From Gammaproteobacteria bacterium (GTDB taxonomy: Bacteria > Pseudomonadota > Gammaproteobacteria > UBA4575): DNA of 64,000 nt. Location of the stretch: the NCBI GenBank assembly GCA_965222615.1, contig CBDCUI010000007.1:32001-96000 (forward strand), written 5' to 3'. Every line of letters starts with the position of its first letter. Position 1 is the first letter of the stretch. The notes under the pieces are model-generated. The model saw nothing but the letters and a program-made list of their open reading frames with translations. It did no database searches and was not told the origin of the DNA. The position numbers were made by a program, and so were the translations under genes. This document shows positions 14,363 to 61,236 of this stretch, piece after piece.

Positions 14363-14373
14363 TTTAATTTGTT

Positions 14374-15252: not shown

Positions 15253-15262
15253 GATAAGTGCA

Positions 15263-15297: not shown

Positions 15298-15483
15298 ATC
15301 CATCACGTAATATGCAAATTGCTTGAGCCGACTATAGGGCTTATGGCAAGATGCTGAACTTTTCGCGCAACTGTGTTGCTTGCGAATGTGGCAGCTCCGG
15401 CCGCTGATATAAAAACTGTGATAATAATCGGGGCTCATTCACTTTTTTAATTTTTAATAAAATTCAATAAAAGGGTTCACGTT

Positions 15484-16752: not shown

Positions 16753-16770
16753 ATTGAATAACTAAAACAC

Positions 16771-16991
16771 GGGAGGCTATGATTTATTAGCCATGTAAAC
16801 ATGGCGACTTAGACGAGGCAAAAAATGTTGAGACAAATCTGCTGGGAGCAGATTTGGGAAGCTCTGCTAGCCGCAGGCCGAGTACCAGGAAGGTACGAGT
16901 CAAAGCGGAGTTTACACGCTAGTTTGCGGCTTTGCCGCCCCGCATTTTGAAACATTTTTTAACGAAGTATAAGAATAAATCAGAGCTTCCA
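16771..16991 (+). repeat. RPE-like palindromic element, copy B, with nested insert(s)
   Basis: Termini GGAGGCTATGATTTATT...AATAAATCAGAGCTTCC and core CGAGGCAAAAAATGTT...GCGGAGTTTACAC...AACATTTTTTAACGAAG as in copy A; extra ~70 bp CAAATCTGCTGGGAGCAGATTTG...GTACCAGGAAGGTAC inside. Confidence 0.75.
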
Positions 16992-17023
16992 TATAACATT
17001 CACTAAAATTTAGGTAGAAGCTT

Positions 17024-17965: not shown

Positions 17966-18147
17966 GTTATAGCGCTAATGCTGAGCTAGAACAGATAACG
18001 CAGTTAATATTGCTTATTTTTTAAGCAATTATCCAACAAGAGGGTTTGTCGAGAGGCGACCGAATAGGCTATAAAAGGCCCTCGGTCCGACACATAAACT
18101 TCGACCGACGCTGATAAGAATAAATCATTTTCTCGGGAGGGAATTAA

Positions 18148-19323: not shown

Positions 19324-19396
19324 AGTTTAGAAGAACTGTCGCAGATAAAGTAAAAGTAAGAAAATTGCGCGCGTAAATTTCTAGGAGAATTCACAC

Positions 19397-20287: not shown

Positions 20288-20316
20288 GCGATAATTAGAT
20301 CTAGGAGATAACAAAA

Positions 20317-21288
20317 ATGAGCAAGCTAAAAGTCATCGTCTCACGAGCCTGGCCTAAGGAGGTTGAAGCAACATTAAAAGAAAAGTATGACGTGCAACTT
20401 AATGAAAATGACGTTGCTATGACTAAAGATGAAATGAAAAATGCTTTAGGAAATTGTGATGCTTTTCTACCGACTGTAACTGATCCAGTGGATGCAGAAG
20501 TATTAAGTGCGGAACCCTTACGTGCAAAATTTATCGGTAATTTTGGAGTTGGTTTTAACCACATCGATTTAGATGCTGCGAAAGCACGAGGTCTTACTGT
20601 TACCAACACACCAGAAGTACTAACTGACTGCACTGCAGATATTGCAATGACCTTATTGCTAACTGCTGCACGCCGTACTAGCGAAGGTGAACGTCATTTA
20701 CGTTCAAATTCATGGACGGGTTGGCGACCTACCCATATGTTAGCAACTAAAGTCACCGGTAAGACATTAGGACTTATTGGAATGGGGCGTATTGCTCAGG
20801 CCATGGCGCAACGCGCGCATTTTGGATTTGGAATGAAAATAATTTTTTCGGATCCATACCCTCCTCCCGCCGAAGTAATTAAAAAGTTTAATGCGCAACA
20901 ATGTGATTCCATTGATGAAGTACTGGCTAACTCAGATTTTGTTTCCATTCATTGCCCTGGCGGCAAGGACACCTACCACTTATTAAGTGAAGAAAATCTT
21001 GCCAAAATGAAATCTACTGCTTTTTTAATAAATTCAGCTCGCGGCGATGTCGTTGACAACGAGGCCTTAATTGACGCACTTAAGAACGGGGTAATCGCCG
21101 GTGCAGGTTTAGATGTATTTGAAGGTGAGCCAAACTTGGATGAACGCTTTATTGAGCTTGAAAATGCTGTGTTACTGCCGCATCTTGGAAGTGCCTCAAC
21201 TGAAACTCGTGTGGCCATGGGAAATCGAGTGTTGGAGAACCTAGCAGCATTTGAAGCAGGCGAAACCCCAAGAGACAAACTCGTTTAA
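20317..21288 (+). CDS. hprA: D-glycerate dehydrogenase / hydroxypyruvate reductase (D-2-hydroxyacid dehydrogenase family)
   Basis: NFGVGFNHID, GLIGMGRIA, INSARG, GLDVFEGEP, LPHLGSAS; substrate inferred from the serine-cycle context. Confidence 0.75.
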   Translation: MSKLKVIVSRAWPKEVEATLKEKYDVQLNENDVAMTKDEMKNALGNCDAFLPTVTDPVDAEVLSAEPLRAKFIGNFGVGFNHIDLDAAKARGLTVTNTPEVLTDCTADIAMTLLLTAARRTSEGERHLRSNSWTGWRPTHMLATKVTGKTLGLIGMGRIAQAMAQRAHFGFGMKIIFSDPYPPPAEVIKKFNAQQCDSIDEVLANSDFVSIHCPGGKDTYHLLSEENLAKMKSTAFLINSARGDVVDNEALIDALKNGVIAGAGLDVFEGEPNLDERFIELENAVLLPHLGSASTETRVAMGNRVLENLAAFEAGETPRDKLV

Positions 21289-21417
21289 GCCCAGAAATGG
21301 GCTAAATATGCTCGTTTCGGGCATTCCAAAACTGCCTTACTCCCCCTATGATGGAAGGGGTCCAGTTATGGGCTCCTTCACACTACTCGACTAAAATTTA
21401 ATTAGACTATCGATAAT

Positions 21418-24192
21418 ATGAATGACTCTTCTCCACTTTCTTGGACACAACTGACTAGAGTTGCTACGGGTCGCACAATCATCGATCCGTCTGCTAGTTA
21501 TGAAGACGGCCTCGTAGAGCTTCTTTATCAGCAATTTTTAAGTGTTATCCGCACTCGTCAACCGGATATCGAGGCGTACTTGGAAGATGAGAAAGATATT
21601 CGTGACGTTACTGAATCACAAGCTTTATATGTACTTGAAGCTTATGGAATCTGGTATCAGCTTCTTAGCATTGCCGAACAAAACGCAATGGTGCAGCAAC
21701 GACGCCAAATTGAAAAAGAATACAGTCGCGATCGTGTACCAGGTACATTTGCTTATACTTTTTCTACGGCGGCACAACGTGGCACTCAAGCACAAGAAAT
21801 TCAAAAAATTCTGAACTATAGCTTCATTTGTCCAGTAATCACTGCACATCCAACCGAAGCCAAGCGTGTAACCGTTTTAGAAATTCACCGCCGCATTTAT
21901 GTTTTACTCAAACAACTAGAGCTTGAGCGTTGGACACCACGAGAACGTGACGACTTAGCACATGAATTGCGTAACGAAATCGACCTGCTTTGGTTAACCG
22001 GTGAAATCCGTCTGGAAAAACCCACGGTTGCACAAGAAGTAGCCTGGGGATTACATTTCTTTACCGAATCACTATTTGATGGCGTAATGCAACTCTATGC
22101 GAGATTTGACCGAGCCTTAGAACAAGCTTATCCACATTTCGACTTTGAAGTACCACCACTATTTCGCTTTGGCACATGGATTGGTGGTGACCGTGACGGG
22201 AACCCAAACGTCACAGCCAAAGTTACTGCCTCTGCTATCCATGCTAACGCGAAGGCTTGCATAAAACGCTATCGGCAAAATATTTATGAGCTTGGTGCAA
22301 AATTAAGCATTGCCAGTCACTCAGTTACTATTCCTGAAAATTTTATGCAGGCATTGCAAAAGAAATTAGAATTCCATAGCAAAGCAGAAACATTTTCAAA
22401 ACGTAATCCAGGAGAAGTGTTTCGCCAGTACTTACGGTGCATATTATTAAGTATTGATGCTACATTAAATAATCTAGATAACCCTAACAAATCCACTATT
22501 GCTTATAAGCGCGCAGCAGACCTAGTAGCAGACCTGAAAACACTTGAGCAAGGTTTAGTTGAAGCCAAATGTGAACACTTAGCAGCAAAGGATGTACGTC
22601 CTTTACGTCACATGGTGGATACCTTTGGTTTTCGTACAGCAAGCTTAGATCTACGTGAAAATACTACCGTTACAAATAGTGTACTTGCAGAAATTTGGCA
22701 AGTATTACATCAAAAAACTCACTTAGATCTTCCAGACTTTAAGTCCAACGAATGGAAAGAATGGATTTTACGCGAGCTAATGCAACCACTACGGGTAGTG
22801 CCACGAATTGACTATTTATCAGAACAAGCCCAATCCACATTAGCGATGCTTGAACAAGTTAAACATTATCAACGCAAGTTAGATCCAAAAACCTTCGGTG
22901 TTATTGTATTAAGCATGACCCAGACTTCGGCAGATGTGCTCGGTGTCTATTTGTTAGCAAAATATGTAGGTCTATTCACAGATGCAGATGGATTAGAAGC
23001 GTGTCGAATTTTAGTGGTGCCCTTATTAGAAACGATTGAAGATCTGGAGAATGGACCTAATATCTTGCAAGAATTACTAGATCACGCTTTTGTTCGACGT
23101 ACGATTCGAAAACATGGTGGCTGCCAGGAAATTATGGTCGGCTATTCTGATTCAAATAAAGACGGTGGGTTTCTTACTTCAAATTGGATCATTAGCAAAG
23201 CGCAATCTCAAATTCATGAAGCTGGCAAAAAATTAAATACACCTGTTTCTTTTTTCCATGGCCGTGGCGGTTCTGTTAGTCGTGGTGGTGCACCCAGCGG
23301 TCGTGCAATTGCTGCCCAACCTGTAGGTACCATCGATGGGCGTATGCGGGTCACAGAACAAGGTGAAGTGGTTTCTTATAAATACGCTAACCGTGGCTTT
23401 GCCGAAGAGCAAATGGAAATCATTGCCGCAAGCGTTTTGACTCATACACTGATGTCAGGGAATGATCCTGCTTATCAAGTGAATGCGGAATTAGATGAAG
23501 CAATGGAAGCGCTCTCTGGTACTGCCTATGTTACCTATAGAAAATTTATCGAATCTCCAGGCTTAGTCGAGTTCTATCAGCAAGCTAGTCCGGTAGAAGA
23601 ATTAGCGTTAATGAAAATTGGCTCCCGCCCGGCACGTAGATTTGGCGCAGCAACATTAGAAGATTTGCGAGCAATACCTTGGGTATTTGCATGGACACAG
23701 AATCGCATTTTAGTACCAGGTTGGTATGGTGTTGGCAGCAGCTTTGAACAGCTTATTAGTATACGTGGGGAATTTGGTAAAGATCTTTTACAACAGTTAT
23801 ATGAAAAACATTCACTGTTTAAATTAATTTTAGACGGTGTCGAAAAAACACTTTTGCTTGTTGATATGGAAGTTGCAGAAAAATACTCAGCGCTCGTTAC
23901 TAACACAGATTTTAGAGAAAACATTTTCTCTAGCATAAAAAATGAATACGAACTAACGACAAAAATGGTTTTGCAAATAACTGGAGAAGATCAGCTATGC
24001 GATCGATTTCCTAACTTTAAGCGACACTTTTACAGACGAAGTGATTCGTTAAACCAAGTAGGCATTGAGCAAGTTGAACTAATAAAAAAGTTTCGTGACG
24101 ATGAACCAAATGAAAAAAATATACAAGACGTATTGATTCCTCTGCTTTTATCCATCAACTGTGTAGCGGCAGGAATTGGAAGCACAGGTTAA
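21418..24192 (+). CDS. ppc: Phosphoenolpyruvate carboxylase
   Basis: TAHPTE, WIGGDRDGNP, MVGYSDSNKDGG, FHGRGGSVSRGG, RAIPWVFAWTQ. Confidence 0.96.
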   Translation: MNDSSPLSWTQLTRVATGRTIIDPSASYEDGLVELLYQQFLSVIRTRQPDIEAYLEDEKDIRDVTESQALYVLEAYGIWYQLLSIAEQNAMVQQRRQIEKEYSRDRVPGTFAYTFSTAAQRGTQAQEIQKILNYSFICPVITAHPTEAKRVTVLEIHRRIYVLLKQLELERWTPRERDDLAHELRNEIDLLWLTGEIRLEKPTVAQEVAWGLHFFTESLFDGVMQLYARFDRALEQAYPHFDFEVPPLFRFGTWIGGDRDGNPNVTAKVTASAIHANAKACIKRYRQNIYELGAKLSIASHSVTIPENFMQALQKKLEFHSKAETFSKRNPGEVFRQYLRCILLSIDATLNNLDNPNKSTIAYKRAADLVADLKTLEQGLVEAKCEHLAAKDVRPLRHMVDTFGFRTASLDLRENTTVTNSVLAEIWQVLHQKTHLDLPDFKSNEWKEWILRELMQPLRVVPRIDYLSEQAQSTLAMLEQVKHYQRKLDPKTFGVIVLSMTQTSADVLGVYLLAKYVGLFTDADGLEACRILVVPLLETIEDLENGPNILQELLDHAFVRRTIRKHGGCQEIMVGYSDSNKDGGFLTSNWIISKAQSQIHEAGKKLNTPVSFFHGRGGSVSRGGAPSGRAIAAQPVGTIDGRMRVTEQGEVVSYKYANRGFAEEQMEIIAASVLTHTLMSGNDPAYQVNAELDEAMEALSGTAYVTYRKFIESPGLVEFYQQASPVEELALMKIGSRPARRFGAATLEDLRAIPWVFAWTQNRILVPGWYGVGSSFEQLISIRGEFGKDLLQQLYEKHSLFKLILDGVEKTLLLVDMEVAEKYSALVTNTDFRENIFSSIKNEYELTTKMVLQITGEDQLCDRFPNFKRHFYRRSDSLNQVGIEQVELIKKFRDDEPNEKNIQDVLIPLLLSINCVAAGIGSTG

Positions 24193-48071: not shown

Positions 48072-48179
48072 ATATACCTAAGTATTAAAAAATTTCTTCA
48101 TTCTACTAATGCTTAACTCTCTAGGTTTAGCCCAGAACGAATTGTTATTTATTTAATTCTAATCTATTTCGTCTAAAAT

Positions 48180-49928
48180 TTAATTTGGTATTACTGGAAC
48201 CTGTATGTGAGTAGGGGTATCTACTCCAAAACAAATTTTCTGCATTGCACTAATTGGTCTAGTTTCGTAAGGAATGGGATTGCCAGTATTTGGATTTCGA
48301 TCAAATCTCGGAAAGCTGCTGCTTGTGATATGAACCCTTATCTGATGCCCTTTCTTGAAAACATAGCTTGTAGGCCATAGTTTTATTTCAATCTTATTCG
48401 CTCCTGTACAACTTTGATTTCCTAACTTATACCCTGCTCTTTTAGTACCATCAGTAACATTGTAGGAATCACCATTTTCAAAAACATCTGTAATTCTCAC
48501 AACAAAGTCTGTGTTAGTTACATTTGTTTGAACAAAAAGAATTGCTGTTATTGGGCCCGTAAGCTCTATATCTGAATCAAGAAATTCGCTTGTATAAACT
48601 AAAACATCATCTCTTATCTCAATTTCATTTTGTAGAGCGATACCAGCACGCGGACCCAGAACTACTCCACCCTTTGATGGTACTGGATCATTCGGATCAT
48701 ACAAATATTGATCAAAACCAATAATTTCAGGCTTATTCCAATTTAGTTTGCCTGAAGAGATTGATGAGTTTGCCGTTCCATTGCTAGAAATATATAAATT
48801 CCTAAATTTAGTCCTTGCTAATGGCCATTCATTTTCGTATCTCCATTTATTAATACCTAAAACAAATAATTTAATTTTTCCTGCATTACTATTTTGATTG
48901 TTTTTAGGCTTTAAAAGTTGTTTATCAAACCAATTTAGTCCTTCCTTAATACTTGTTTTTCTATATGTTGGTACTTTACTTGTACCTGGTATTTTTACTT
49001 CTCTTGCATGTGACCAAGGACCAATAATTATTTCTGATTGAGTAGAAACAGTTTTAGATTCTGATTGTTTTAATTGCATAAAATCATCAAGTTGAGAGGG
49101 TAAAAAAGGGTCAAACCAACCAGCAAGCATTTGTACAGGTGCATTAATGGATTTGGCCCTGTCTATACCATCAATATTTATCCAGTACTTATTGTTAGTA
49201 TTGTTCAGCACCCAATCGTTAAAAAACTGAATATCTTTACCAGCACGTTCATCTGCGCTTATTAAAGGGAATCCCCAAAATCCTTTTTCCATATCCTTTA
49301 TTTTAGGTTCGAAGTCTTCCTTGCCACTGCTTTGCAGTGACCATCTAAGTGCACTTTCAAGGGAAAAAGCCCCGCCAGGGTAAAACATGTCATAGAAGCT
49401 AGTACTAACGATATGTAGATGGTAAGCGCTGATATTCGGATTAGTTTGATCAGAGATTGCTAGTTGTGTGTATCCAAAGGCAGACCCTCCCCACATGCCA
49501 AGTTGTCCACTGAACCATGGTTGTTTGTTCAGCCATTGTAATGTTTCGATTCCATCTCCTCTTTCATTTATTAAAGGATAGTATTCACCCTGAGATTTAT
49601 AGCGTCCACGTGTTCCTTGGATAACAACATTGTACCCACGAGATGCCCAATATCTTGCAACTGCATCTGATTTCAAACGATTTGGAAATGTATTTGTAAA
49701 CGGAATTCTTATTAGAATTGTAGGTACCGGTTTATTGGCGACAGGTCTGTAAACATCGGAGACAAGAGTAATATTATCTGAAGTAATTAAACTATAATCT
49801 TCATGTTTAACTACTTTATATTCTCTGGATCGGACACCCTCATTCGGGAGAAAGAACTCCTGTGTAATAGTTTGACAACCACATAAGAGAAGAATTAACA
49901 AAAACGAAAGATTTTTGATAAGTTTCAT
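48180..49928 (-). CDS. CocE/NonD family serine hydrolase, predicted lipoprotein
   Basis: Lipobox LLCGC, GTRGRYKSQG, GMWGGSAFG nucleophile elbow, GWFDPF, IGPWSH, PepX-like C-terminal domain (SSSFPRFDRNPNTG). Confidence 0.88.
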   Translation of the reverse strand: MKLIKNLSFLLILLLCGCQTITQEFFLPNEGVRSREYKVVKHEDYSLITSDNITLVSDVYRPVANKPVPTILIRIPFTNTFPNRLKSDAVARYWASRGYNVVIQGTRGRYKSQGEYYPLINERGDGIETLQWLNKQPWFSGQLGMWGGSAFGYTQLAISDQTNPNISAYHLHIVSTSFYDMFYPGGAFSLESALRWSLQSSGKEDFEPKIKDMEKGFWGFPLISADERAGKDIQFFNDWVLNNTNNKYWINIDGIDRAKSINAPVQMLAGWFDPFLPSQLDDFMQLKQSESKTVSTQSEIIIGPWSHAREVKIPGTSKVPTYRKTSIKEGLNWFDKQLLKPKNNQNSNAGKIKLFVLGINKWRYENEWPLARTKFRNLYISSNGTANSSISSGKLNWNKPEIIGFDQYLYDPNDPVPSKGGVVLGPRAGIALQNEIEIRDDVLVYTSEFLDSDIELTGPITAILFVQTNVTNTDFVVRITDVFENGDSYNVTDGTKRAGYKLGNQSCTGANKIEIKLWPTSYVFKKGHQIRVHITSSSFPRFDRNPNTGNPIPYETRPISAMQKICFGVDTPTHIQVPVIPN

Positions 49929-50665
49929 CTTGGTTTTTTTCTCTTAACACCTAGCAATCTTGCAAACCCCCATTTCCTAAAACCCAACATCATTGCAACC
50001 CCATTACGCTTGTTTGCAGGAATTTTTAAGTCATCGCTAATTAATTGGTCAAAATATCTTGCAACTTCGTCTAATTTCTCATGCATTTTATGAATCGCTC
50101 CATCAGTAAGCATTCCACCAACAAAGTGAAGTTTCTCGTCAGGATCAGAAAATTTTGTTTCTAAAAATTCAGTTAAAATTTCTTGATTGAAAAACTTTTG
50201 TACCGGACCATCATCGGACCATTTAAAGTTTCGAGCTGTTAATAAACGAATACGATTAAATGGTAATAATTCAATTAGACCAATTTTTTCAAGCTTTATA
50301 AAATGCTTGTTGAGTTCGGCTTCTGAGAAATCAAACGTATCCTTAATTTCATGCTCCTTCCAATGATTAAGAATAAGGTAGGTAACTAATAACAACCTAT
50401 GATCATTCACAAATTCTTTTTCTTGTTGCAATGTAAGTTGTGTAACTAAAGGTTGCTGTTGTTCTGATTCCAATACAACTTCTTTGATGTCTATCCCAAG
50501 CCAATTGCACAAAGTCTCTAGTCGCTTTAATGATAAGTCAGCCTTTGAGAATAAGCGCTTTACACTTGCTTCACTCAAATCAAGAATTTCGGCAGCTTCA
50601 GCATAGGACTTTCCCTTCTTACGCATGATTTTCTTCAGTGCTATATGTATTGATTTACTCTGCAT
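49925..50665 (-). CDS. XRE-like helix-turn-helix transcriptional regulator with C-terminal domain
   Basis: LKKIMRKKGKSYAEAAEILDLSEASVKRLFS HTH; LIELLPFNRIRLL...GPVQKFF; overlaps the hydrolase start by 4 bp. Confidence 0.85.
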   Translation of the reverse strand: MQSKSIHIALKKIMRKKGKSYAEAAEILDLSEASVKRLFSKADLSLKRLETLCNWLGIDIKEVVLESEQQQPLVTQLTLQQEKEFVNDHRLLLVTYLILNHWKEHEIKDTFDFSEAELNKHFIKLEKIGLIELLPFNRIRLLTARNFKWSDDGPVQKFFNQEILTEFLETKFSDPDEKLHFVGGMLTDGAIHKMHEKLDEVARYFDQLISDDLKIPANKRNGVAMMLGFRKWGFARLLGVKRKKPR

Positions 50666-50684
50666 AAACTTGAAGGTATCAATT

Positions 50685-50745
50685 TATAATACTTAAGTAT
50701 TAAATATTACTAATATTTTTATATTTATTGCATTATATAATACTT
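50685..50745. promoter_or_regulatory. Divergent promoter/operator of the island
   Basis: Perfect 16-bp palindrome TAATACTTAAGTATTA (50687-50702); TATAATACTT repeated at 50685 and 50736. Confidence 0.5.
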
Positions 50746-50901
50746 TTAGAGATTCTTACACTAATTCGTAGCAATTATTGGCTATCAATCAATATCAAGG
50801 GGAGGATTATTTTGAGCCAAACACAGCTGTTCATAACTTTATTTTTGATCATTTGTCTTTCTCTACTTTGATTGAAATTTCTGAAGAGGAGTATTGGATT
50901 T

Positions 50902-51369
50902 ATGAACTCAGTGAAAGAAATAAATACTTACCAGGGAACTTACGGAGCAATTCTTTGGAGCCTACTGGGTCTATTTTGCTTCCGAGTTGTAGCGCAATTA
51001 ATTCAATCTAATTTCTCAATAGATTTCTTACCTGCATTTGAAGCTTGGCATAGTGGAGCGCTGCCATATCACTACTTAGTCATCACTCAGATTTTCATTA
51101 TCTTTTTATATAGCTACATATGCATTCGTTTTACAAGTAGGAAAGTAGTTCCCAATAGAAAACTGGGAAATATATTTTTATATTCAGGGTTAATTTATGC
51201 AGTAGCTATGTTAGCGCGATTATTAATTGGAGTATTTGGAATTTCTTCAGCATGGTTCCATGCATATTTGCCAATATTTTTTCATTTCGTACTTGCTGCT
51301 TTTTTAATTGTAGTTGGTCTGTTTCATCTGAAATTTTATAAACACTATGAAAAATTACTTCACTCATAG
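50902..51369 (+). CDS. Hypothetical integral membrane protein (4 TM)
   Basis: GAGGAG RBS before ATG at 50902; FRVVAQL, WHSGALPY, PIFFHFVLAAFL; overlaps the next gene. Confidence 0.75.
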   Translation: MNSVKEINTYQGTYGAILWSLLGLFCFRVVAQLIQSNFSIDFLPAFEAWHSGALPYHYLVITQIFIIFLYSYICIRFTSRKVVPNRKLGNIFLYSGLIYAVAMLARLLIGVFGISSAWFHAYLPIFFHFVLAAFLIVVGLFHLKFYKHYEKLLHS

Positions 51370-53935
51370 TTTATTACCATGGGTTGCATACCCGATTGGT
51401 ATTGGGATAGGAATCTACTTGCATATAGTAATGCTTTCATGGGGCATTGATCTTCAAATTAGCACATACGTTCCTATATTTTTTGCAGCCGGGATGATCA
51501 CGTTGTTTGAGCTTTATTTTCCACATTTACATCAATGGAAACCCAATATTAAAGATGTAAAAAATGATGCAATGTACATGCTTATTGTACAAACGATTTT
51601 GCCAAAAGTATTGGCATTTTTTACTGCATTAGTACTGTTACGCTATTCAAACGAAAGTAGTTTATTTAATTTAAACCTTTGGCCACATTACTTACCTGTA
51701 TGGATTCAGGCAATGATAATGATTTTAGTGGCTGATTTTTTTCGTTATTGGCTTCATGTTGCTTCTCATAAAAATAGTTTCTTATGGAGATTTCATGCAG
51801 TTCACCATTCCCCTAAAAAATTGTATTGGATAAATACAGGAAGATTTCATCCTATTGAAGAAGTCGCTCAGTTTTTATTCGATGCATTACCTTTCATTCT
51901 ACTAGGTGTCAGTGAATATGTTCTGGCATTTTATTTTGTTTTCTACGCCATAAATGGTTTTTTTCAGCATTCCAATATAAAACTGAAGTTTGGTGTATTG
52001 AATTATTTAATTAGTACTGCAGAACTACATCGTTGGCATCATTCACGTATTGAGAATGAATCAAATTCAAATTATGGAAATAATACAATTATTTGGGATC
52101 TAATCTTTGGTACTAGATACTTACCAAATAATAGAAGCATCGAAAATATAGGGCTTATCAATTCCAAATATCCGACTACATTTATCGATCAACTTAAAAC
52201 TCCATTTGTTGGAGGATTAGATAAAAAGAATTTGCCTTTACCTAGCATTAAACAGCTAATTGTGAATGGCCTAATCAAACTTCAAATGAAAATTACCAAA
52301 TATACTATTTGGAAACCCATGATGAAGGCTGCTAAAGACCCTATGCATGCGCAATTTAGTTTCCTCAAACAACTCATGGAAGAAAATGCAAAGACAAAAT
52401 TTGGAAAAGAACATCAATTTAATAACATAAATTCTTATGAAGATTATTGTAGGCTTGTGCCTATTCAAACATATGAGACGTTAAGCCCATATTTTACAAA
52501 ACAAGATAAATCAAAAGAATCTTTGATAAACAATGAGCAACCGTTTATGTATGCAGTTACAAGCGGGACTACAGGAGCATCAAAATTTATACCGATTTTA
52601 GATAAGACAATAAAACAAAATAAAAAGCACCAGAAGCTTTTTACCTATATTCAATATAGAGATAATCCTGGAACATTTAGCGGCAAAATGCTAGGAATAG
52701 TTAGCCCAGCAATTGAAGGATATACAGAGCCGGGCACTCCATTCGGCTCTGTATCTGGTGTTCTATATAAAAATATGCCTTCGATTATGAGATCGAAATA
52801 TGTACTTCCATTTGAAATATTTTCAATTGAAAACTATGAGCTTAAATATCAACTAATTCTAAGAATCGCCCTTACCTATAAAGATATTACCTATTTTGTT
52901 ACAGCAAATCCGTCAACTTTACTAATGCTTAACAAAATACTAAATGAGGATATTTCTGTATTAGCAAATGAAATTGAGCATGGAGGATTTAGAGAATACG
53001 AAGTCTTACCAAAGAGTATCCAAACATTTATTACAAAAAATTTGAAGCCAAATCCAAAACGTGCAGATGAACTACGTCAGCTAATATTTAATAAACAAGA
53101 AATTACTTTTGCAGATGTATGGCCACAGTTACAAACCGTTGTTACATGGACTGGCGGTAGTTGTGGAATCGTATTAGACACAGTTAAGCAAAAATTACCA
53201 GCCACGACAAAAATTATTGAACTAGGGTATATGGCTACTGAAGTGAGAGGAACAATAACAATTGATGCAGAAAATAATCTTGGTCTTCCTACTATTGAGG
53301 ATAATTTTTTTGAATTTGTAGAAAGAGATGATTGGGAAAATGATAAACATAATTTTCTAACAATCGATCAGCTATCTAAAAACAAAGAGTACTATATATT
53401 CATCACAACAAATTCTGGCCTTTATAGATATTTCATTAATGACATAGTTAGAGTAACTGGAAAAGTAGAAAATACTCCTACTCTTCAATTTATACAAAAG
53501 GGAAAAGGTGTTACTAGTATTACAGGTGAAAAATTATATGAATCTCAAGTTATTGAAGCGATGAAATTAACTGAGAAAGAGTTTAATTTTACAAATATCT
53601 TCTTCATTATGCTAGCAAATAAAAAATTCTCAAACTATGAATTATTTATTGAGAATTTCGATAATTTTGAACCCCCATTAGAACTAATAAGAGACTATGT
53701 TGAGTCTTGTCTTTGTAGATTAAATATTGAATATGAAAACAAACTTGCAAGTGGGAGGATTAAACCACTATCTTTACATCTTATTCAAAGTGGAACAAGA
53801 GAAATATTTAAAAAGTATTTCATCGAAAAAGGACAAAAAGAAAGTCAATTTAAAATTGTGGCTCTTCAATATAAAGATGAATTGGACTTTGATTTTGAAA
53901 ATCACGTTCTAAGATTTTTTGAAAAAGCGAGTTAA
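51347..53935 (+). CDS. Fusion: sterol desaturase/fatty-acid hydroxylase domain + GH3-family acyl-acid amido synthetase domain
   Basis: N-terminal TM domain with His boxes HVASH, HAVHH, QHSN, HRWHH; C-terminal GH3 motifs TSGTTGASKFIP, GYMATE, GLYRYFINDIV, TGEKL. Confidence 0.85.
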   Translation: MKNYFTHSLLPWVAYPIGIGIGIYLHIVMLSWGIDLQISTYVPIFFAAGMITLFELYFPHLHQWKPNIKDVKNDAMYMLIVQTILPKVLAFFTALVLLRYSNESSLFNLNLWPHYLPVWIQAMIMILVADFFRYWLHVASHKNSFLWRFHAVHHSPKKLYWINTGRFHPIEEVAQFLFDALPFILLGVSEYVLAFYFVFYAINGFFQHSNIKLKFGVLNYLISTAELHRWHHSRIENESNSNYGNNTIIWDLIFGTRYLPNNRSIENIGLINSKYPTTFIDQLKTPFVGGLDKKNLPLPSIKQLIVNGLIKLQMKITKYTIWKPMMKAAKDPMHAQFSFLKQLMEENAKTKFGKEHQFNNINSYEDYCRLVPIQTYETLSPYFTKQDKSKESLINNEQPFMYAVTSGTTGASKFIPILDKTIKQNKKHQKLFTYIQYRDNPGTFSGKMLGIVSPAIEGYTEPGTPFGSVSGVLYKNMPSIMRSKYVLPFEIFSIENYELKYQLILRIALTYKDITYFVTANPSTLLMLNKILNEDISVLANEIEHGGFREYEVLPKSIQTFITKNLKPNPKRADELRQLIFNKQEITFADVWPQLQTVVTWTGGSCGIVLDTVKQKLPATTKIIELGYMATEVRGTITIDAENNLGLPTIEDNFFEFVERDDWENDKHNFLTIDQLSKNKEYYIFITTNSGLYRYFINDIVRVTGKVENTPTLQFIQKGKGVTSITGEKLYESQVIEAMKLTEKEFNFTNIFFIMLANKKFSNYELFIENFDNFEPPLELIRDYVESCLCRLNIEYENKLASGRIKPLSLHLIQSGTREIFKKYFIEKGQKESQFKIVALQYKDELDFDFENHVLRFFEKAS

Positions 53936-53943
53936 CTATAATC

Positions 53944-55068
53944 GTGCGGGTTAAAAATACTATATTAAAAAAAATAGATATTCCTTTTACAGTGTCCTTC
54001 AAACACTCCTCTGCTAAACGATCACAAACTGAGAGTGTTCTTGTAGAGATGACATCTAATAGAGGAATAACAGGTTATGGAGAATCATGTCCAAGAGATT
54101 ACGTAACTTCCGAAAACATTAATAGTGTAAAAGCATTTTTCAATGAAAATATTTTCTCCTTTAAAAATGAAGTGATCAACTTATTTAGTCTAAATAATTG
54201 GATGGACAAAAATGCTAAAAAAATTGATGCAAATCCAGCTGCTATGTGTGCAATCGAAATGGCATTTCTAGATTTGCTTTCAAGAAACAATAGTGTGTCA
54301 ATAGAAAACCTAATCGGGCTACCTGAATTACACGGTCATTTTAAATATACAGCCGTAATTGGAGATAGTAGTGCAGAAATATTTCATAGCATTCTTAAAA
54401 AATATTTAGAAATGGGCTTTGATGACTACAAGGTTAAACTCTCTGGCGACATTGAAAAGGATCAAGAAAAATGTCAAATAATAAATCGTAACGTCAATTC
54501 TCCTATACGATTGCGATTTGACGCTAACAACCTATGGGATAACTATAAAATTGCGATTAACTATTTATCTAAATTAAATATAGATTATTTTGCAGTTGAA
54601 GAACCGCTTGCCCCAAATGACTTTGTAGATTTATCCAAAATCTCAAATGAGCTAAACAAACAAATCATTTTAGATGAAAGTTTTTTGAGAGTTAGTCAAT
54701 TTGAAAATCTCATTGATCATCCTGAAATGTGGATAATAAATCTTCGCATATCAAAGATGGGTGGTTTATTAAGGTCAAAGAAAATTGTCGATGAAGCAAA
54801 AGCCCACGGAGTTAAGATAATCATAGGTGCTCAGGTTGGTGAAACTAGCCTTCTCTCTAGAGCTGCTTTAGTTATCGCTAATTCTGCAAGAGACATACTT
54901 ATTGCTCAAGAAGGTGCATATGGAAATTTACTACTAAAAACAGACCTTTGTGAGCCACCAATTATGTTTAGCAAATCAGGTGTTCTCAATTCTTCCAATC
55001 TACCAATATCCTCAAATGGATTTGGATTTGAATTAAAAAATCATGATAATTTCGAGATAATTAACTAG
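53944..55068 (+). CDS. Enolase superfamily (muconate-lactonizing/epimerase subgroup) enzyme
   Basis: GYGESCPR, YKVKL (KxK), RFDAN, VEEPL, ILDES, NLRISKMGG. Confidence 0.85.
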   Translation: MRVKNTILKKIDIPFTVSFKHSSAKRSQTESVLVEMTSNRGITGYGESCPRDYVTSENINSVKAFFNENIFSFKNEVINLFSLNNWMDKNAKKIDANPAAMCAIEMAFLDLLSRNNSVSIENLIGLPELHGHFKYTAVIGDSSAEIFHSILKKYLEMGFDDYKVKLSGDIEKDQEKCQIINRNVNSPIRLRFDANNLWDNYKIAINYLSKLNIDYFAVEEPLAPNDFVDLSKISNELNKQIILDESFLRVSQFENLIDHPEMWIINLRISKMGGLLRSKKIVDEAKAHGVKIIIGAQVGETSLLSRAALVIANSARDILIAQEGAYGNLLLKTDLCEPPIMFSKSGVLNSSNLPISSNGFGFELKNHDNFEIIN

Positions 55069-55155: not shown

Positions 55156-58100
55156 TTATACAGTACTTGCGCGCATTTCTCTAAATCTTGAAAAAGTATA
55201 ATTACGCAAATCATCTGCAATCATGTAAAAACATGGCAATACCACTAAAATAAGCACAGTGGCAAAGATTAAACCGAATCCAAGGCTCACTGCCATGGGT
55301 GATAAAAATGCAGTTTGGCCACTGGCAAAAAAGATTAATGGCGAAATTCCTAAAAATGTCGTTACCGTAGTAAGTAAAATTGGGCGAATACGTACTCTTC
55401 CCGCATCCACTAATGCATCAAAACAAGTTGCCCCTTGTGCGCGTCGTTTTTTAGCAAAATCTATAAGAATCAAAGAATCATTTACGACTATTCCCGTCAA
55501 TGCAAGAAAACCTATCATGGATAAAAATTGTAAATTGTAGCCAAAGATTAAATGCCCAACGATCACACCTACAATTGCAAAAGGTATCGCAAACATGATT
55601 ACAAGTGGGTCCAATATAGACTTAAACAATGCTGCAAGAATAAAGAAAATAATTGCCAGTGCAATAATCAGCATGTTGCCAATATCATTGAATGAATCTT
55701 GTGATTCTTTTTTCTCGCCCAAATGTAGTAAAGAATAACCTGGATGATCCTCACTTAAATGAATGAACTCTTGATCTATAAGCTCATTTACCTCTAGTGG
55801 CGTGATTACATCTGCATCCACTTCAGCAGTCACTAAAGACAGACGTTGTGAATTACGTCGTTGTACTGCCCCAAGACCACGCCCTAACTCAATATCCGCT
55901 ACTTCGCCTAAGTAGACGGTTCCACCATTTGCAAGTGTGATCGGCAAACGTTGCAAGCCTGCACCGTCTTTACGTATCGAATTAGGATAAATTACACGAA
56001 CTGGATATCGATCCGTTTGCCAATTAACTTGCATTACCTCCAGTCCCAAATATCCAGTGCGCACTGCATCGGCAATTTGCGCTTGGGTTAAACCTAATTC
56101 TCTGCCGCGCGCATTGAGGGTGTATTGGTACTCGAGTTTGCCGGGCTCAAGATCTTGACGCACATCTCGAACACCTGGGATGCGTCGCAAAAAAGTAACC
56201 ACCTCTCCCGAAATATCAAGTAATTTATCGGTCTCATTACCAGTAATTCCTACTTCAATATCAGATCCAGCGGGCCCTCCTTGTGGCCGTAATATTGAAA
56301 AACGTTGTATACCTGGAACACTCGCAACACTAGCTCGAATTTCATCTATTATTGCTTCTGTATTGCGCTCACGTTTGCCACGCTCCTCAAAGCGTAAATT
56401 AACCAAGGGGCTTATAAAGGTTTCGATAAATCCTTCTGGCTTGGGTTTATTTAAATCTATAACAAACTGAATATAGTTACTTCCAAGTTTAAAGCGGTTA
56501 AAGTCAATTAAGGTGACTCCGACATTCGTTAGTAAGGTATCCAGTTCATCCTCTTGAAAAACTTTATTCATGCGATTCTCAATTTCAATTGCAAGCGCTG
56601 TAGTATCATCAATGCTATAAGTATTTGGAGCTTCAACATTTACAAGAAACTGACCAATTTCTACATCTCCAAACTGGTTATATGGCATTCTTGTATAAGA
56701 AAAAGCAAGTACCACACTCAACGCACCTATGGTTGCAGCTGAAATGAAATAACGATTGCGCAAGGCATACTGAATAATCGTGATATATTTCTTTAAAAAC
56801 TTACTTGAATTACTCTGCACAAAAGTGCGCCACCAACTGTTTTTATCTTTTTTGCTAACTTTTAACATTTCTGCCGAATGAGACGGCAGTACAATAAAGG
56901 CTTCTAATAAAGATCCTATTAAAGATGCAGTAACCACTACTGGAATGACTTGTATAAACAAACCTAAGGTTCCCGACACACCAAACATAGGCAAAAAAGC
57001 TGCAATAGTAGTGGAAGTGGAAGCCACTACAGGCCAAAACACTTCGCTTGCACCTCGTTTAGCAGCGGCATCTGCCACCATGCCATCTTCCATGTGACGA
57101 TAAACGTTTTCAGTAACAATAATTGCATCATCGACAATCATGCCTAGTGCAATTAAAAATGCGAACATTGACACCATGTTTATGGTGTATCCAAGATAGT
57201 GAATAATAATTACAGCCACTAAAAATGAAACAGGAATACCCAAGGCCGTAATAAATGCAACACGAAAGTTTAAAAACAAATAAAGAGATAATAAAACCAA
57301 GAAGAGCCCTACTGCACCAGATGACTTTAAAGTCTCTAAACGCGTCTTTACATATTTTGACAGATCGCTAAATAAACCAAGTTTGATGCCGCGCGGTAGA
57401 TTTTTTTGTATCTCGGCAGCGAGTTCACGCGTAGCTTGAGAAACATCAATGGTTGAAGCCTTTGCGGTTTTTGTAATGGTGAGATTTACAGACGGCTTAC
57501 TATTAAAACGCCCTAGGGTTTTAGTTTCTTCTAAGCGCAATTTAACGTTTGCCACTGCACCAAGAACAAGCTGCCCGCCATTGGCATTACTACGCAAAAC
57601 AATCTTTTTAGTTGCATCAATATCGGGAGCCGCACCTTTACCACGCAATAATATGTCTCCTTCAGAAGCTTTGAGAGATCCGCCAGGTAAATCTCTAAGA
57701 TTATTTCTTAACGCAGAAATGACGGTTCCCAAAGACACATTTCGAGCGGACATTATGTAAGGGTCTACTTCAACCCATAATTCCCAATCCCGCTCACCTG
57801 CAATACTTACACTGGCGACACCATCGATTTGTTGTAAGCGAGATTTGACGTCCTTTGCCGTTTCAATCAAGGTACCCATCGACACATCGCCATACACACT
57901 TAAACTAATAACTGGAAAACGTGTTTTTAAGCGAGTTATTTCCGACCTTTCCGATTCTTCCGGCAAATCTGTTATGGCATCAACCGTAGAACGTAAATCT
58001 CTAACAAATTCGTCAACGTCTGTATCTGGTTTCAACTTTATGACAATCTTCGATAAACCTTCATTGCTCTCAGAAGTCACTACATCGATATCTGCAAGGG

Positions 58101-58317
58101 TGTCTAACTCTTCTTCGATTGGTATGGTTATTTGAGATTCCACTTCTTCGGGTGGAGCACCTTCAAACTCGGTATTGATACGAACTTTATCAATTTCCAC
58201 GACGGGGAACATTTCCTGTGGCATACTGCGCCAAGAAATAACACCCGTGACAATTACCAGTACCAAAAATAGGTTAACGACTAGTGGGTTTTTAATAGAA
58301 AAATTAATAATACCCAT
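55156..58317 (-). CDS. RND efflux transporter permease subunit (AcrB family)
   Basis: LGMIVDDAIIVTENV, GIVVNDS, RIRPILLTTVTT; 1053 aa. Confidence 0.93.
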   Translation of the reverse strand: MGIINFSIKNPLVVNLFLVLVIVTGVISWRSMPQEMFPVVEIDKVRINTEFEGAPPEEVESQITIPIEEELDTLADIDVVTSESNEGLSKIVIKLKPDTDVDEFVRDLRSTVDAITDLPEESERSEITRLKTRFPVISLSVYGDVSMGTLIETAKDVKSRLQQIDGVASVSIAGERDWELWVEVDPYIMSARNVSLGTVISALRNNLRDLPGGSLKASEGDILLRGKGAAPDIDATKKIVLRSNANGGQLVLGAVANVKLRLEETKTLGRFNSKPSVNLTITKTAKASTIDVSQATRELAAEIQKNLPRGIKLGLFSDLSKYVKTRLETLKSSGAVGLFLVLLSLYLFLNFRVAFITALGIPVSFLVAVIIIHYLGYTINMVSMFAFLIALGMIVDDAIIVTENVYRHMEDGMVADAAAKRGASEVFWPVVASTSTTIAAFLPMFGVSGTLGLFIQVIPVVVTASLIGSLLEAFIVLPSHSAEMLKVSKKDKNSWWRTFVQSNSSKFLKKYITIIQYALRNRYFISAATIGALSVVLAFSYTRMPYNQFGDVEIGQFLVNVEAPNTYSIDDTTALAIEIENRMNKVFQEDELDTLLTNVGVTLIDFNRFKLGSNYIQFVIDLNKPKPEGFIETFISPLVNLRFEERGKRERNTEAIIDEIRASVASVPGIQRFSILRPQGGPAGSDIEVGITGNETDKLLDISGEVVTFLRRIPGVRDVRQDLEPGKLEYQYTLNARGRELGLTQAQIADAVRTGYLGLEVMQVNWQTDRYPVRVIYPNSIRKDGAGLQRLPITLANGGTVYLGEVADIELGRGLGAVQRRNSQRLSLVTAEVDADVITPLEVNELIDQEFIHLSEDHPGYSLLHLGEKKESQDSFNDIGNMLIIALAIIFFILAALFKSILDPLVIMFAIPFAIVGVIVGHLIFGYNLQFLSMIGFLALTGIVVNDSLILIDFAKKRRAQGATCFDALVDAGRVRIRPILLTTVTTFLGISPLIFFASGQTAFLSPMAVSLGFGLIFATVLILVVLPCFYMIADDLRNYTFSRFREMRASTV

Positions 58318-60042: not shown

Positions 60043-61236
60043 CTAAAGATCTACTGCAACCTTTTGTCCATCTTGAAGTCCTGCAACATCTCGCGCAACA
60101 ATCATTTCGCCTGATTGTAGGCCCGATGAAATAATATATTCACTACCTACGCGTTGACTAAGTTCTACAGTTACATGGTTTATCTTGCCATCTTTATATA
60201 CATAAACATGGCTTTCACCTGCATTGGTGGCGACAGAAGATACCGGTACAGTAATTGCGTCAAACTGTTTAACAAGTGGTAAATCTGCACTTGCAAGCAT
60301 ACCCGACTGAATAGCCTCACTAGGCAAACGAATTCTAAGGGCATGTGTATTCGTAGTCGGATCTGGATCAGGCTGTAAAGCAATGAGCTTACCTTGTATA
60401 GATTTACTTCCAACTCGAACATCAATATCTTGATTCAGAGATAAAGCAGCTGCTACTCCCCCTCGCACGTCAAGCTGTAAATCTAATGAGCTGGTATCCA
60501 CAATGGTCGCAACGACTTCAGTAGCGGTAACGAAATCACCAACTTGTACACTCACTTCATTTACATAACTAGCAAATGGAGCAATTAAAGTTGCACGTTT
60601 TAAATTTCGTTGAGCAACATCACGATCGGATTTCTTTAATGCCAATCTGGCCTTGGAGGTCTCAACTTTATATTTCAAATCTGACACTTGAGAATCGAGT
60701 GTTAACATTTGTTGACGTGCAGCGTCTAATTGCGATGCAGATATCAAAGAATCACTGTTTAGCTGTTCATAGCGTCGCACTTCGGCCTGTTGTAATGCCA
60801 AATTATCTTGAGCTAATTTGAGCATCCTTTGATCTCGTTGAATCCCTGCTTTCTCAATAAGATATTGTGATTCGGCCTGAGTGAATTGATCTTGTAGATC
60901 CTCGTCATCGAGGATTAACAAGGGTTGTCCTAAATCAACATATACGCCGGGCTCTACTAATCGCTGTTTAATACGACCCGGAACCTCAAATTCAAGTTGT
61001 GCAGTTTTGACAGGCTGTAAACGACCAGTTAGTGACTCTTGAGGTATCAGGTCTTGTCGCTTGACTTCGACAAGTACTACCTTCAGCGGTGGCAATTCTT
61101 CCAATTTTGCCTCAGGTCCTTTTTTTGTCCAAAATAGCGCTGCCACAAGGACCACGGCTGTAATAATGGCAATTACGCTACCTGCCAGTTGCTTTGGGGC
61201 TAACTCCCGAGTATTGCTGTTAGTAGATTCAGTCAA
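60043..61236 (-). CDS. RND efflux periplasmic adaptor (MFP) subunit
   Basis: N-terminal TM, FEVPGRI lipoyl-like motif, coiled-coil hairpin, LIAPFASYV. Confidence 0.9.
   Translation of the reverse strand: MTESTNSNTRELAPKQLAGSVIAIITAVVLVAALFWTKKGPEAKLEELPPLKVVLVEVKRQDLIPQESLTGRLQPVKTAQLEFEVPGRIKQRLVEPGVYVDLGQPLLILDDEDLQDQFTQAESQYLIEKAGIQRDQRMLKLAQDNLALQQAEVRRYEQLNSDSLISASQLDAARQQMLTLDSQVSDLKYKVETSKARLALKKSDRDVAQRNLKRATLIAPFASYVNEVSVQVGDFVTATEVVATIVDTSSLDLQLDVRGGVAAALSLNQDIDVRVGSKSIQGKLIALQPDPDPTTNTHALRIRLPSEAIQSGMLASADLPLVKQFDAITVPVSSVATNAGESHVYVYKDGKINHVTVELSQRVGSEYIISSGLQSGEMIVARDVAGLQDGQKVAVDL

Follow-up and report, generated by a model that had tools for sequence, protein, structure and literature searches.

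The nearest characterised system to the locus described here is the GH3 enzyme OlsH together with the ornithine-lipid hydroxylase OlsE. OlsH, a GH3 enzyme of the planctomycete Singulisphaera acidiphila described in 2025, forms N-acyl ornithine from free fatty acid in the presence of ATP and Mg2+, without CoA or ACP; that report (PMC12493201) also notes thousands of widespread bacterial GH3 homologues that may form other N-acyl amino acids. OlsE hydroxylates C4 of ornithine, according to a title in the reference list of PMC12971839. In addition, N-acyl dehydrotyrosines occur naturally and are made by unrelated enzymes (PMC12479983).

We analysed a stretch of 64,000 nucleotides from a methylotroph-like gammaproteobacterium, hereafter the window, in which a divergent gene group occupies positions 48180-55068. 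The rightward operon (50902-55068, plus strand) encodes a small membrane protein termed TM4 (from an ATG at 50902 or a TTG at 50872 to 51369; about 155 residues from the ATG), a hydroxylase-GH3 fusion of 862 residues (51347-53935) and a divergent enolase-superfamily protein of the MLE subgroup with 374 residues (53944-55068). The fusion gene overlaps the TM4 gene by 23 nt and ends 8 nt upstream of the enolase-superfamily gene. The minus strand carries the genes of an HTH protein (49925-50665, 246 residues) and of a CocE-type hydrolase (48180-49928, 582 residues), with a 4-nt overlap between the HTH stop and the hydrolase start. An earlier note, made from the letters alone, had listed these five genes, the translational coupling of the leftward pair and a DNA richer in AT than its flanks. 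Domain matches and coordinates agree with its gene calls, and the overlap bears out the coupling. The base composition also agrees, with a G+C content of 0.330 in 48180-55068 and 0.400 in the remainder of the window, which makes this stretch the G+C minimum among all 6.9-kb segments (mean 0.393, sd 0.029). No mobile-element marks were seen flanking 48180-55068. The intergenic region between the two divergent units (50666-50901) has a G+C content of 25% and contains a perfect 14-nt palindrome, AATACTTAAGTATT, at 50688-50701. If up to two mismatches are allowed, the window has four matches to this sequence where 0.88 would be expected, a count reached by one shuffle in 100; the sequence is not kept in the intergenic region of the related locus L001. 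The palindrome is a candidate operator only.

Searching species-representative genomes yielded 645 pattern-matching stretches, 605 of which encode a relative of the fusion, and 63 loci spanning at least 11 phyla were retained. The enolase gene lies directly 3' of the GH3 gene in 59 of the 63 (same strand, -60 to +200 nt from the GH3 end), and the TM4 gene was found in 47. A GH3 ORF is present in 61 loci. In 17 of these it also encodes the hydroxylase, and in 39 the two are adjacent separate ORFs, often with overlapping stop and start, which gives 56 loci with the GH3 domain joined to the hydroxylase or beside it. In L044 and L054, two Bdellovibrionota loci, GH3 and the enolase homologue are paired without a hydroxylase next to them. 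Natural fusions connect all four parts: TM4 with hydroxylase and GH3 (P0074, P0098), TM4 with hydroxylase, GH3 with enolase (P0391, P0393), and hydroxylase with GH3 and enolase (P0392, P0394). TM4 also occurs joined to the CocE hydrolase. The remaining immediate neighbours are heterogeneous. A full-length CocE relative stands beside the module in 8 of the 63 loci and the HTH regulator in one (L001). Chance juxtaposition of unrelated genes within an AT-rich patch would suit the rare linkage of the leftward pair and the flanks without mobile-element marks, but the rightward genes repeat in order at all these loci and in fusions. As they recur jointly in unrelated genomes, the arrangement is non-random; the probability of a chance assembly is negligible, and for the rightward operon it is refuted.

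The rightward operon represents one instance of a widespread module with four parts, namely TM4, the OlsE-like hydroxylase, the GH3 ligase and the enolase-superfamily enzyme. This operon alone is the conserved unit. The CocE hydrolase and the HTH regulator are lineage accessories. The self-contained five-gene island of the earlier note thus holds for the rightward genes, which co-occur in unrelated genomes when cluster conservation is checked, and fails for the seldom-linked leftward pair. Its statement that no characterised cluster has this composition stands insofar as we found no publication describing the four-part module, although OlsH is now a known nearest relative. Carriers include methylotroph-like gammaproteobacteria, Nitrospira, Nitrospinaceae, Acidobacteriota, Methylomirabilia, Dehalococcoidia and Acidimicrobiia, with several records of the last two named for sponge symbionts.

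TM4 has four hydrophobic helices by hydropathy scan, as claimed before, and when 26 members were scanned, none credibly matched a family of Pfam or NCBIfam. This unnamed family has 1143 cluster representatives at E<=1e-3 in a profile search, with F25, R28, V29, L59, R106, W118, F119, F127 and H128 invariant. The N-terminal domain of the fusion (residues ~1-300; 51347-52250) belongs to the membrane di-iron FA_hydroxylase superfamily, as revealed by a PF04116 match of 109.3 bits (cut-off 31) and three His boxes, H137xxxH141, H150xxHH154 and H228xxHH232, whose histidines are invariant across 16 fused homologues (alignment A1). It contains five hydrophobic segments. The NCBIfam OlsE model NF052566 matches it over model positions 29-284 of 293 with an E-value of 3.4e-52; the score of 177.6 bits lies below the equivalog cut-off of 475, placing the domain as OlsE-like.

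The C-terminal domain (residues ~326-862; 52251-53935) matches the N-terminal, middle (GH3_M) and C-terminal (GH3_C) GH3 domains, with 198.8 bits for PF03321, 70.5 for PF23571 and 49.6 for PF23572 (cut-off 23.6 each), confirming the predicted desaturase/hydroxylase-GH3 fusion. The three nucleotide-binding motifs are recognisable as TSGTTGASK (405-413), YMATE (628-632) and GLYRYFIND (691-699), corresponding to SSGTSxGxxK, YGSSE and GLYRYRLGD given for AtGH3.11 in PMC12493201. Their key residues are invariant in the 16 homologues of alignment A1. The OlsH model NF052613 matches in two stretches (E-value 1.5e-33, 116.1 bits against an equivalog cut-off of 620).

The substrate of this domain was considered in the light of its partners. 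Plant GH3 structures, its only solved homologues, match residues 336-837 with an E-value of about 5e-22, and motif III (GLYRY) is nearer to the plant motif than that of OlsH. Both features would be consistent with conjugation of a soluble aromatic or hormone-like acid, as in the plant conjugation of IAA or jasmonate. However, in 56 of 61 loci the domain is joined to an integral-membrane hydroxylase of the lipid type or encoded next to one, in some proteins it is also fused to the four-helix protein, and the only characterised bacterial GH3 enzyme works on fatty acids. Because it is tied to two membrane proteins, we argue for a lipid substrate and consider a soluble acid highly improbable. The hormone-conjugate idea of the earlier note finds no support, since nothing points to such a compound. 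A plain ornithine-lipid pathway, with the GH3 domain as an OlsH orthologue forming lyso-ornithine lipid, the hydroxylase as an OlsE orthologue and the enolase gene as incidental, is improbable too, if slightly less so. The two domains match no NCBIfam families other than OlsE and OlsH, and the OlsH report itself allows for bacterial GH3 homologues with other N-acyl amino acid products. Nevertheless, both scores fall far under the equivalog cut-offs, and no O-acyltransferase, whether of the OlsI or OlsA type or otherwise, is conserved near the module loci, which gives no indication of a membrane lipid with two chains. The enolase gene is moreover the tightest-linked partner, and its linkage at 59 of 63 loci together with its GH3 fusions indicates that it is not incidental.

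The enolase homologue matches MR_MLE_C (PF13378, 96.4 bits) and MR_MLE_N (PF02746, 33.9 bits), and its putative metal ligands D193, E219 and D244 align with D191, E219 and D244 of the dipeptide epimerase BsDE, placing it in the MLE subgroup. The strand-2 KxK motif is retained as K163 and K165. These two lysines, D193 and E219 are kept in all 58 homologues, and D244 in 57 of the 58. On strand 6, two independent gap-free alignments pair the catalytic lysine of BsDE (K268) with Arg268. Arginine occupies this position in 56 of 57 homologues and Lys271 is kept in 56 of 57, while the homologue of locus L006 has lysine at both positions. The alpha/beta-hydrolase-fused sister P0429, the only such sequence read, keeps the canonical Lys...Arg order, so the swap may be confined to the GH3-linked family. 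Among solved structures, the best matches are the dipeptide epimerases 3jva (1.6e-46) and 1jpm (6.3e-42) together with NSAR entries, all of which act at the C-alpha of amino acids that are N-acylated and have their carboxylate free. The protein falls outside the NSAR/OSBS subfamily (TIGR01928, 120 bits against a cut-off of 200.65). The DxD motif after strand 8 of dipeptide epimerases, which binds the N-terminal ammonium group, is also lacking; Q322 and Y326 stand opposite BsDE D321 and D323, and in the family the Q322 column is variable and the Y326 column is Phe in 54 of 57 homologues.

These features bear on the role that the earlier note had tentatively given this protein, an N-acyl amino acid racemase leading to an oxidised N-acyl-D-amino acid. 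According to a preprint (10.1101/2022.03.03.481873), the MLE subgroup is defined by the strand-2 and strand-6 lysines, racemisation requires both, and a positive residue three positions past the strand-6 site is tied to racemase activity. Lys271, which stands at that position in 56 of 57 homologues, might extend into the active site and restore two-base chemistry; L006 carries the strand-6 lysine, and the best solved relatives are two-base epimerases or racemases of N-acylated amino acids. In contrast, the arginine at the strand-6 site of nearly the whole family, the canonical order in P0429 and the low score against the NSAR/OSBS model speak against racemisation, which we regard as unlikely. 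Assignment to the MLE subgroup is supported by the fold, by the KxK motif and by the metal ligands; the strand-6 arginine weakens the case for a racemase step and favours one-base chemistry such as dehydration.

The leftward hydrolase consists of Peptidase_S15 and PepX_C domains. It scores 333.3 bits against the CocE/NonD model TIGR00976 (cut-off 66.3) and aligns over its full length with the Rhodococcus cocaine esterase (280 bits), with Ser149, Asp273 and His307 aligned to S117, D259 and H287 of CocE. This Ser-Asp-His triad is kept in 8 of 8 module-linked copies. Tyr44 of CocE is an oxyanion-hole residue; its column holds Phe in this hydrolase and F, L or Y among the eight copies. The N-terminus, MKLIKNLSFLLILLLCGC, reads by eye as a signal peptide ending in a lipobox cysteine, in line with the CocE-type lipoprotein of the earlier note. 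Five of the module-linked copies are free and carry lipoboxes, and three (loci L002, L004 and L030) are fused to TM4 via a fifth helix. The hydrolase is thus a predicted lipoprotein of extracytoplasmic location, also as suggested before. The divergently encoded regulator is of the XRE type (HTH_26, 28.9 bits) and belongs to a family of 1285 members at E<=1e-3; its C-terminal domain of about 170 residues has no known family. Contigs carrying its close homologues match in length those with close homologues of the fusion.

Based on these comparisons, we propose a pathway in which GH3-dependent synthesis of a lipoamino acid is combined with OlsE-like oxidation and with reworking of the amino-acid end by the enolase homologue, a scheme to which we give an even chance. 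The GH3 domain would adenylate a free fatty acid on the cytoplasmic side of the inner membrane and couple it to an amino acid at the alpha-amino group, giving an N-acyl amino acid; this step is modelled on OlsH and on the retained nucleotide motifs. The fused di-iron domain, with TM4, may then hydroxylate or desaturate the conjugate in an O2-dependent reaction. Upon binding of the free alpha-carboxylate to Mg2+ in the enolase homologue, a strand-2 lysine would abstract the alpha-proton. As the strand-6 lysine is an arginine, the enolate would most likely collapse by one-base chemistry rather than racemise, for example by beta-elimination of a hydroxyl group to give an N-acyl-2,3-dehydroamino acid. 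The product is most likely an oxidised N-acyl amino acid and possibly a dehydroamino-acid lipid. A hydroxyl at C4, the OlsE regiochemistry, could not be eliminated following alpha-proton removal, which counts against dehydration. The enolase step may not need hydroxylation, because L044 and L054 lack an adjacent hydroxylase. In this lineage, the periplasmic CocE-type lipoprotein might act on the exported product, where it would cleave an ester or amide bond or transfer it, and the XRE regulator is a second attached accessory. That GH3, His-box oxidase and enolase-superfamily enzyme act on one acyl-amide, as the earlier note supposed, finds support in how strongly their genes are linked and in the natural fusions. 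It also weighs against the proposed pathway that both domains fall far short of the equivalog thresholds, with 177.6 bits where OlsE requires 475 and 116 where OlsH requires 620.

A further-reaching and rather doubtful proposal is that the module, present in at least 11 phyla, represents a fourth, non-homologous route by which bacteria form amino-acid lipids. In this scheme GH3 would acylate an amino acid, the OlsE-like domain would hydroxylate the beta-carbon, and the enolase homologue with swapped Arg and Lys would dehydrate the conjugate to an N-acyl-2,3-dehydroamino acid. Where CocE is present, a bolder variant would run through acylation, conversion, flipping by TM4 and periplasmic deacylation, with the fatty acid as a membrane carrier delivering the modified amino acid outside the cytoplasm. 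The function of a bacterial GH3 enzyme was assigned only in 2025, through OlsH, and the module offers a concrete and testable GH3 subgroup with fixed partners, whose chemistry can be predicted step by step and which many environmentally important groups carry. If it makes a new class of lipoamino acids, these should be included in lipidomic surveys, and its CoA-independent amide-forming and tailoring enzymes would be useful for biosurfactant synthesis. The enolase superfamily, a textbook case of enzyme evolution, would gain a reaction type or at least an active-site layout; if the dehydration route is true, the homologue would be the first member known to act upon a lipid.

[quoted passage not shown] It differs in its distant GH3 domain (116 bits, cut-off 620), which is joined to a hydroxylase or lies beside one and has an enolase-superfamily partner in 59 of 63 loci, in the lack of an OlsI-type acyltransferase and an OlsG methyltransferase, and in its periplasmic hydrolase, which is of the CocE type and present at 8 of 63 loci only. 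The hydroxylase domain resembles OlsE in its near-full model coverage (E-value 3.4e-52), the same His boxes and a membrane-embedded form, but is fused to GH3 and scores 177.6 bits against 475. With the MLE-subgroup enzymes, namely dipeptide epimerases, NSAR/OSBS and cis-3-hydroxy-L-proline dehydratase, the enolase homologue shares the fold, the strand-2 KxK motif, the three metal ligands and a predicted substrate in which a carboxylate neighbours a carbon bearing an N-acyl group. It departs from them in the swapped pair, with arginine for the strand-6 lysine and a lysine three residues on, and in a substrate that is likely a lipid; from dipeptide epimerases it differs in having Q322...Y326 in place of D321...D323 of BsDE. 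Compared with CocE/NonD enzymes such as the Rhodococcus cocaine esterase (280 bits, aligned triad) and the alpha-amino acid ester hydrolases, the hydrolase is lipoprotein-anchored, or TM4-fused in relatives, and has Phe for Tyr44. Finally, the NasY/TyzC/TyzB pathways to N-acyl dehydrotyrosines and tyrazolones (PMC12479983) would share with the proposed route N-acylation followed by O2-dependent oxidation of the amino-acid moiety, and N-acyl 2,3-dehydroamino acids as the product class, whereas they employ an unrelated GNAT-like synthase, a nitroreductase-family desaturase and a ThiF-like cyclase.

All five genes claimed by the earlier note were recovered by ORF listing together with Pfam and NCBIfam scans. 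The minus strand carries a CocE/NonD hydrolase gene (48180-49928; TIGR00976, 333 bits) and the gene of an XRE-type HTH protein (49925-50665), whose stop shares 4 nt with the hydrolase start. On the plus strand lie a small membrane protein without family match, here named TM4 (50902-51369), an 862-aa fusion whose FA_hydroxylase domain is linked to a full GH3 set of N-terminal, middle and C-terminal domains (51347-53935), and an MR_MLE enolase-superfamily protein detected by Pfam (53944-55068). The AT-richness noted before was also borne out, the G+C content of the locus being 33.0% versus 40.0% for the remaining window, the minimum among all 6.9-kb windows. Ordinary chromosomal genes flank the locus, those for Na+-pyrophosphatase, PBP2 and RodA at one end and that for an RND efflux permease at the opposite end. 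No convincing direct repeats were found around it, which leaves the low G+C as the only mark of a mobile island; across the whole 64 kb there is no tRNA gene, and no Rfam family reaches its gathering score. Plasmid carriage was rejected, as 0 of 193 matching PLSDB records span at least 80% of the fusion, and among the matches listed all 15 cover the hydroxylase part only. Scanning for promoters and terminators gave no useful signal, with 19 promoter-like sites found where 35.6 were expected.

Two further features of the window were recorded. A C1/serine-cycle-type gene run at 13290-24192 encodes FhcD (formylmethanofuran-H4MPT formyltransferase), FolD, an aspartate/serine-glyoxylate-type aminotransferase, a CitE/malyl-CoA-lyase-like protein, malate-CoA ligase alpha and beta, glyoxylate/hydroxypyruvate reductase and PEP carboxylase. 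This serine-cycle and H4MPT gene set suggests a methylotroph-like gammaproteobacterium as host, either a methylotroph or a methanotroph. A PA2778-family C39-like cysteine peptidase (NF033920, 320 bits) at 9755-10768 stands apart from its neighbours.

The conserved unit of the locus is the rightward operon, 50902-55068. A word-indexed protein search returned 2663 relatives of the fusion, and the best 120 of them (44-100% identity) all contain the same four Pfam domains, with source names including Cytophagaceae, Gammaproteobacteria, Gemmatimonadetes, Latescibacteria, Myxococcota, Gracilimonas and Kaarinaea. Among 645 pattern matches in species-representative genomes, 605 were confirmed as fusion relatives. 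Of the 63 loci that were retained and searched by tblastn with the proteins of the window, 59 have the enolase gene in the orientation of GH3 and between -60 and +200 nt from the GH3 end; it is placed elsewhere in three (L006, L046 and L057) and absent from one (L041). The TM4 gene was found in 47 of the 63. Of the five-gene island described earlier, the rightward genes recur together, unlike the CocE hydrolase (8/63) and the regulator (1/63). Other immediate same-strand neighbours, scanned in 36 cases, are heterogeneous and include PhyH dioxygenases, methyltransferases and one alpha/beta hydrolase. A PhyH-type (phytanoyl-CoA dioxygenase family) gene sits directly upstream of the module in L004 (7951-8853) and L030 (7969-8835), two loci that also bear TM4-CocE fusions, and it may provide an extra oxidative tailoring step. 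In the window, the RND permease gene (55156-58317) is convergent with the enolase gene at a distance of 88 nt, and a periplasmic adaptor gene follows at 60043-61236. No RND relative was found by tblastn among the 63 loci, so a link between the efflux system and the module is not supported.

The arrangement of hydroxylase and GH3 was compared over the 61 loci with a GH3 ORF, which entered the junction analysis and ORF clustering. Both domains share a single ORF of >800 aa in 17 loci and form separate adjoining ORFs in 39. The two split ORFs are in different frames at 32 junctions, often with ATGA-type overlaps, and in the same frame at 7; read-through of an in-frame stop was rejected, since 7 of 39 is no more than chance. 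The remaining five loci lack an adjacent hydroxylase ORF and include L037 at a contig edge, L044 and L054 from Bdellovibrionota, and L010, which has a shorter fused ORF of 712 aa. A quick IQ-TREE phylogeny of the GH3 domain (61 rows) places the window with L001 first and L010 next; both of these loci come from Gammaproteobacteria MAGs. On this tree the fused or split state switches at least 7 times, and phylum labels are clustered yet mixed, Pseudomonadota requiring 11 changes. The closest related locus, L001 (5479-12701), has a fusion 89% identical to that of the window. It lacks the CocE gene and carries four additional genes between the regulator and TM4, encoding a second stand-alone FA_hydroxylase, a 162-aa protein, a weak DoxX-like protein and a DCC1-like thiol-disulfide oxidoreductase.

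Natural fusions tie all parts of the module together. A TM4 profile built from the family alignment (A2) retrieved 1143 cluster representatives at E<=1e-3, mostly of about 150 aa. Pfam scans of 14 longer relatives revealed FA_hydroxylase after the TM4 part in five, a CocE-type S15 domain in two, a MurB-like domain in one and no other family in six. The proteins P0074 (1009 aa) and P0098 (1005 aa) combine TM4, hydroxylase and GH3, and L002, L004 and L030 encode TM4-CocE fusions joined via a fifth hydrophobic helix. [quoted passage not shown] TM4 as a cytochrome-b-like electron donor to the hydroxylase was considered and rejected, H128 being its only invariant histidine.

The only NCBIfam matches for the two domains of the fusion are the ornithine-lipid hydroxylase OlsE and the GH3-family N-acyl ornithine synthetase OlsH. 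Both scores fall far below the cut-offs, with 177.6 bits against 475 for the hydroxylase domain (E 3.4e-52) and 116 bits against 620 for the GH3 domain (E 1.5e-33). The hydroxylase part shows five hydrophobic segments and three His boxes. The GH3 part carries the nucleotide motifs TSGTTGASK, YMATE and GLYRYFIND, which are invariant in 16 homologues and correspond to the three motifs quoted in PMC12493201. The same paper describes OlsH as the first characterised bacterial GH3 enzyme, which in extracts forms N-acyl ornithine from free fatty acid with ATP and Mg2+, without a need for CoA or ACP, and favours non-hydroxylated fatty acids; the second acyl chain is added by OlsI, an alpha/beta hydrolase. 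The site of OlsE is C4 of ornithine, according to a title cited in PMC12971839.

For the enolase homologue, the best solved relatives by family profile are the dipeptide epimerases 3jva (1.6e-46), 2p88 (2.2e-46) and 1jpm (6.3e-42), followed by NSAR entries, all of which act on an N-acylated amino acid with a free carboxylate by removing its alpha-proton. Residues were placed by alignment to the dipeptide epimerase BsDE and to the homologue set. The strand-2 KxK residues K163 and K165 (BsDE K160 and K162) and the metal ligands D193 and E219 (BsDE D191 and E219) are retained in 58/58 homologues, and the metal ligand D244 (BsDE D244) in 57/58. The strand-6 catalytic base of BsDE, K268, is replaced by R268, with Arg in 56 of 57 homologues and Lys in L006 only, and the second-shell K271 (BsDE K271) is Lys in 56/57. 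According to preprint 10.1101/2022.03.03.481873, members of the MLE subgroup have catalytic lysines on strands 2 and 6 as their defining feature, and racemisation requires two bases. If the strand-6 Lys-to-Arg exchange means that the second base has been lost, a one-base reaction such as OSBS-type dehydration or cycloisomerisation becomes more likely than racemisation, which weakens the racemase step put forward in the earlier note. Alternatively, Lys271 could take over the role of the second base. The 56 hydrolase-fused enolase proteins (P0395-P0450, about 676 aa) carry the alpha/beta hydrolase at the C-terminus of a close enolase relative (34-42% identity), with source names including Syntrophales, Desulfoluna and Thermodesulfobacteriota. 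One of them, P0429, has the canonical order N-I-K-I-S-R, strand-6 Lys then Arg, whereas the GH3-fused enolase proteins read N-x-R-x-S-K; judged by this comparison alone, the Arg/Lys swap seems characteristic of the GH3-linked family. A MenH-MenC identity of the hydrolase fusions was rejected, as no MenH model matched and OSBS scores were below cut-off.

Full-length CocE relatives of at least 40% identity occur in L002, L004, L015, L027, L029, L030, L033 and L035; fragments were found in L019 and L025, and a 26%-identical paralogue lies 7 kb off in L014. The alignment of the window's hydrolase to Rhodococcus cocaine esterase spans the full length (280 bits), and the Ser-Asp-His triad is retained in all eight module-linked copies. 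Free copies carry lipoboxes (window, L015, L027, L029 and L033), which together with the fifth helix of the TM4 fusions puts the predicted location of the hydrolase domain in the periplasm, in agreement with the extracytoplasmic enzyme suggested before. Residue 77 (codon 49698-49700) is Phe at the position of cocaine esterase Tyr44, as in the Y44F entry 1l7r, and the position varies among F, L and Y in the eight copies. Tyr44 has an oxyanion-hole role in cocaine esterase.

The single related locus in which a regulator adjoins the module is L001, where it is shorter (167 aa) and again divergent, and the operon opposite ends TM4-fusion-enolase. Close homologues of the regulator and of the fusion lie on contigs of matching size (1,299,313, 11,425, 8,372 and 668,600 nt). 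Both observations lend indirect support to control of the locus by the XRE regulator in this lineage. The divergent intergenic region contains a perfect 14-nt palindrome, AATACTTAAGTATT, at 50688-50701, and immediately beyond the 3' end of the CocE gene, at 48073-48086, there is a second copy that differs at 2 positions. The palindrome is a candidate operator on weak statistics (4 matches in the window vs 0.88 expected), and it was not seen in the intergenic region of L001.

We propose a pathway whose observed basis is domain identities and gene linkage, and we infer every other step. The GH3 part, working on the inner side of the membrane, would join a fatty acid to an amino acid, and the resulting N-acyl amino acid would be oxidised by the hydroxylase together with TM4. 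The enolase homologue would then form a Mg2+-stabilised enolate at C-alpha, most likely leading to elimination of a beta-substituent and a dehydroamino-acid lipid, otherwise to epimerisation. Where present, the periplasmic CocE enzyme might act on the exported product by cleaving or transferring an ester or amide bond, with expression in this lineage under XRE control. Several points stand against this model. Neither fusion domain comes near the cut-off of its OlsE or OlsH model; a hydroxyl at C4, the OlsE site, would not be open to elimination after alpha-proton removal; and in L044 and L054 GH3 is paired with the enolase homologue but no hydroxylase lies next to them. The proposed product class has precedent, since N-acyl 2,3-dehydrotyrosines are known natural products; the enzymes named for them in PMC12479983 (NasY, a nitroreductase-type desaturase and a ThiF-like protein) are unrelated to those of the module.

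No paper on a GH3-hydroxylase-enolase module was found in a search that left most subscription journals outside, and in the 2026 review PMC12971839 the words 'fusion', 'enolase' and 'racemase' each occur 0 times. We rate the module as probable GH3/OlsH-type lipoamino-acid synthesis with OlsE-type tailoring, both already known, and as new in it the enolase-superfamily enzyme, whose active-site pair is swapped, and the unnamed 4-TM family.
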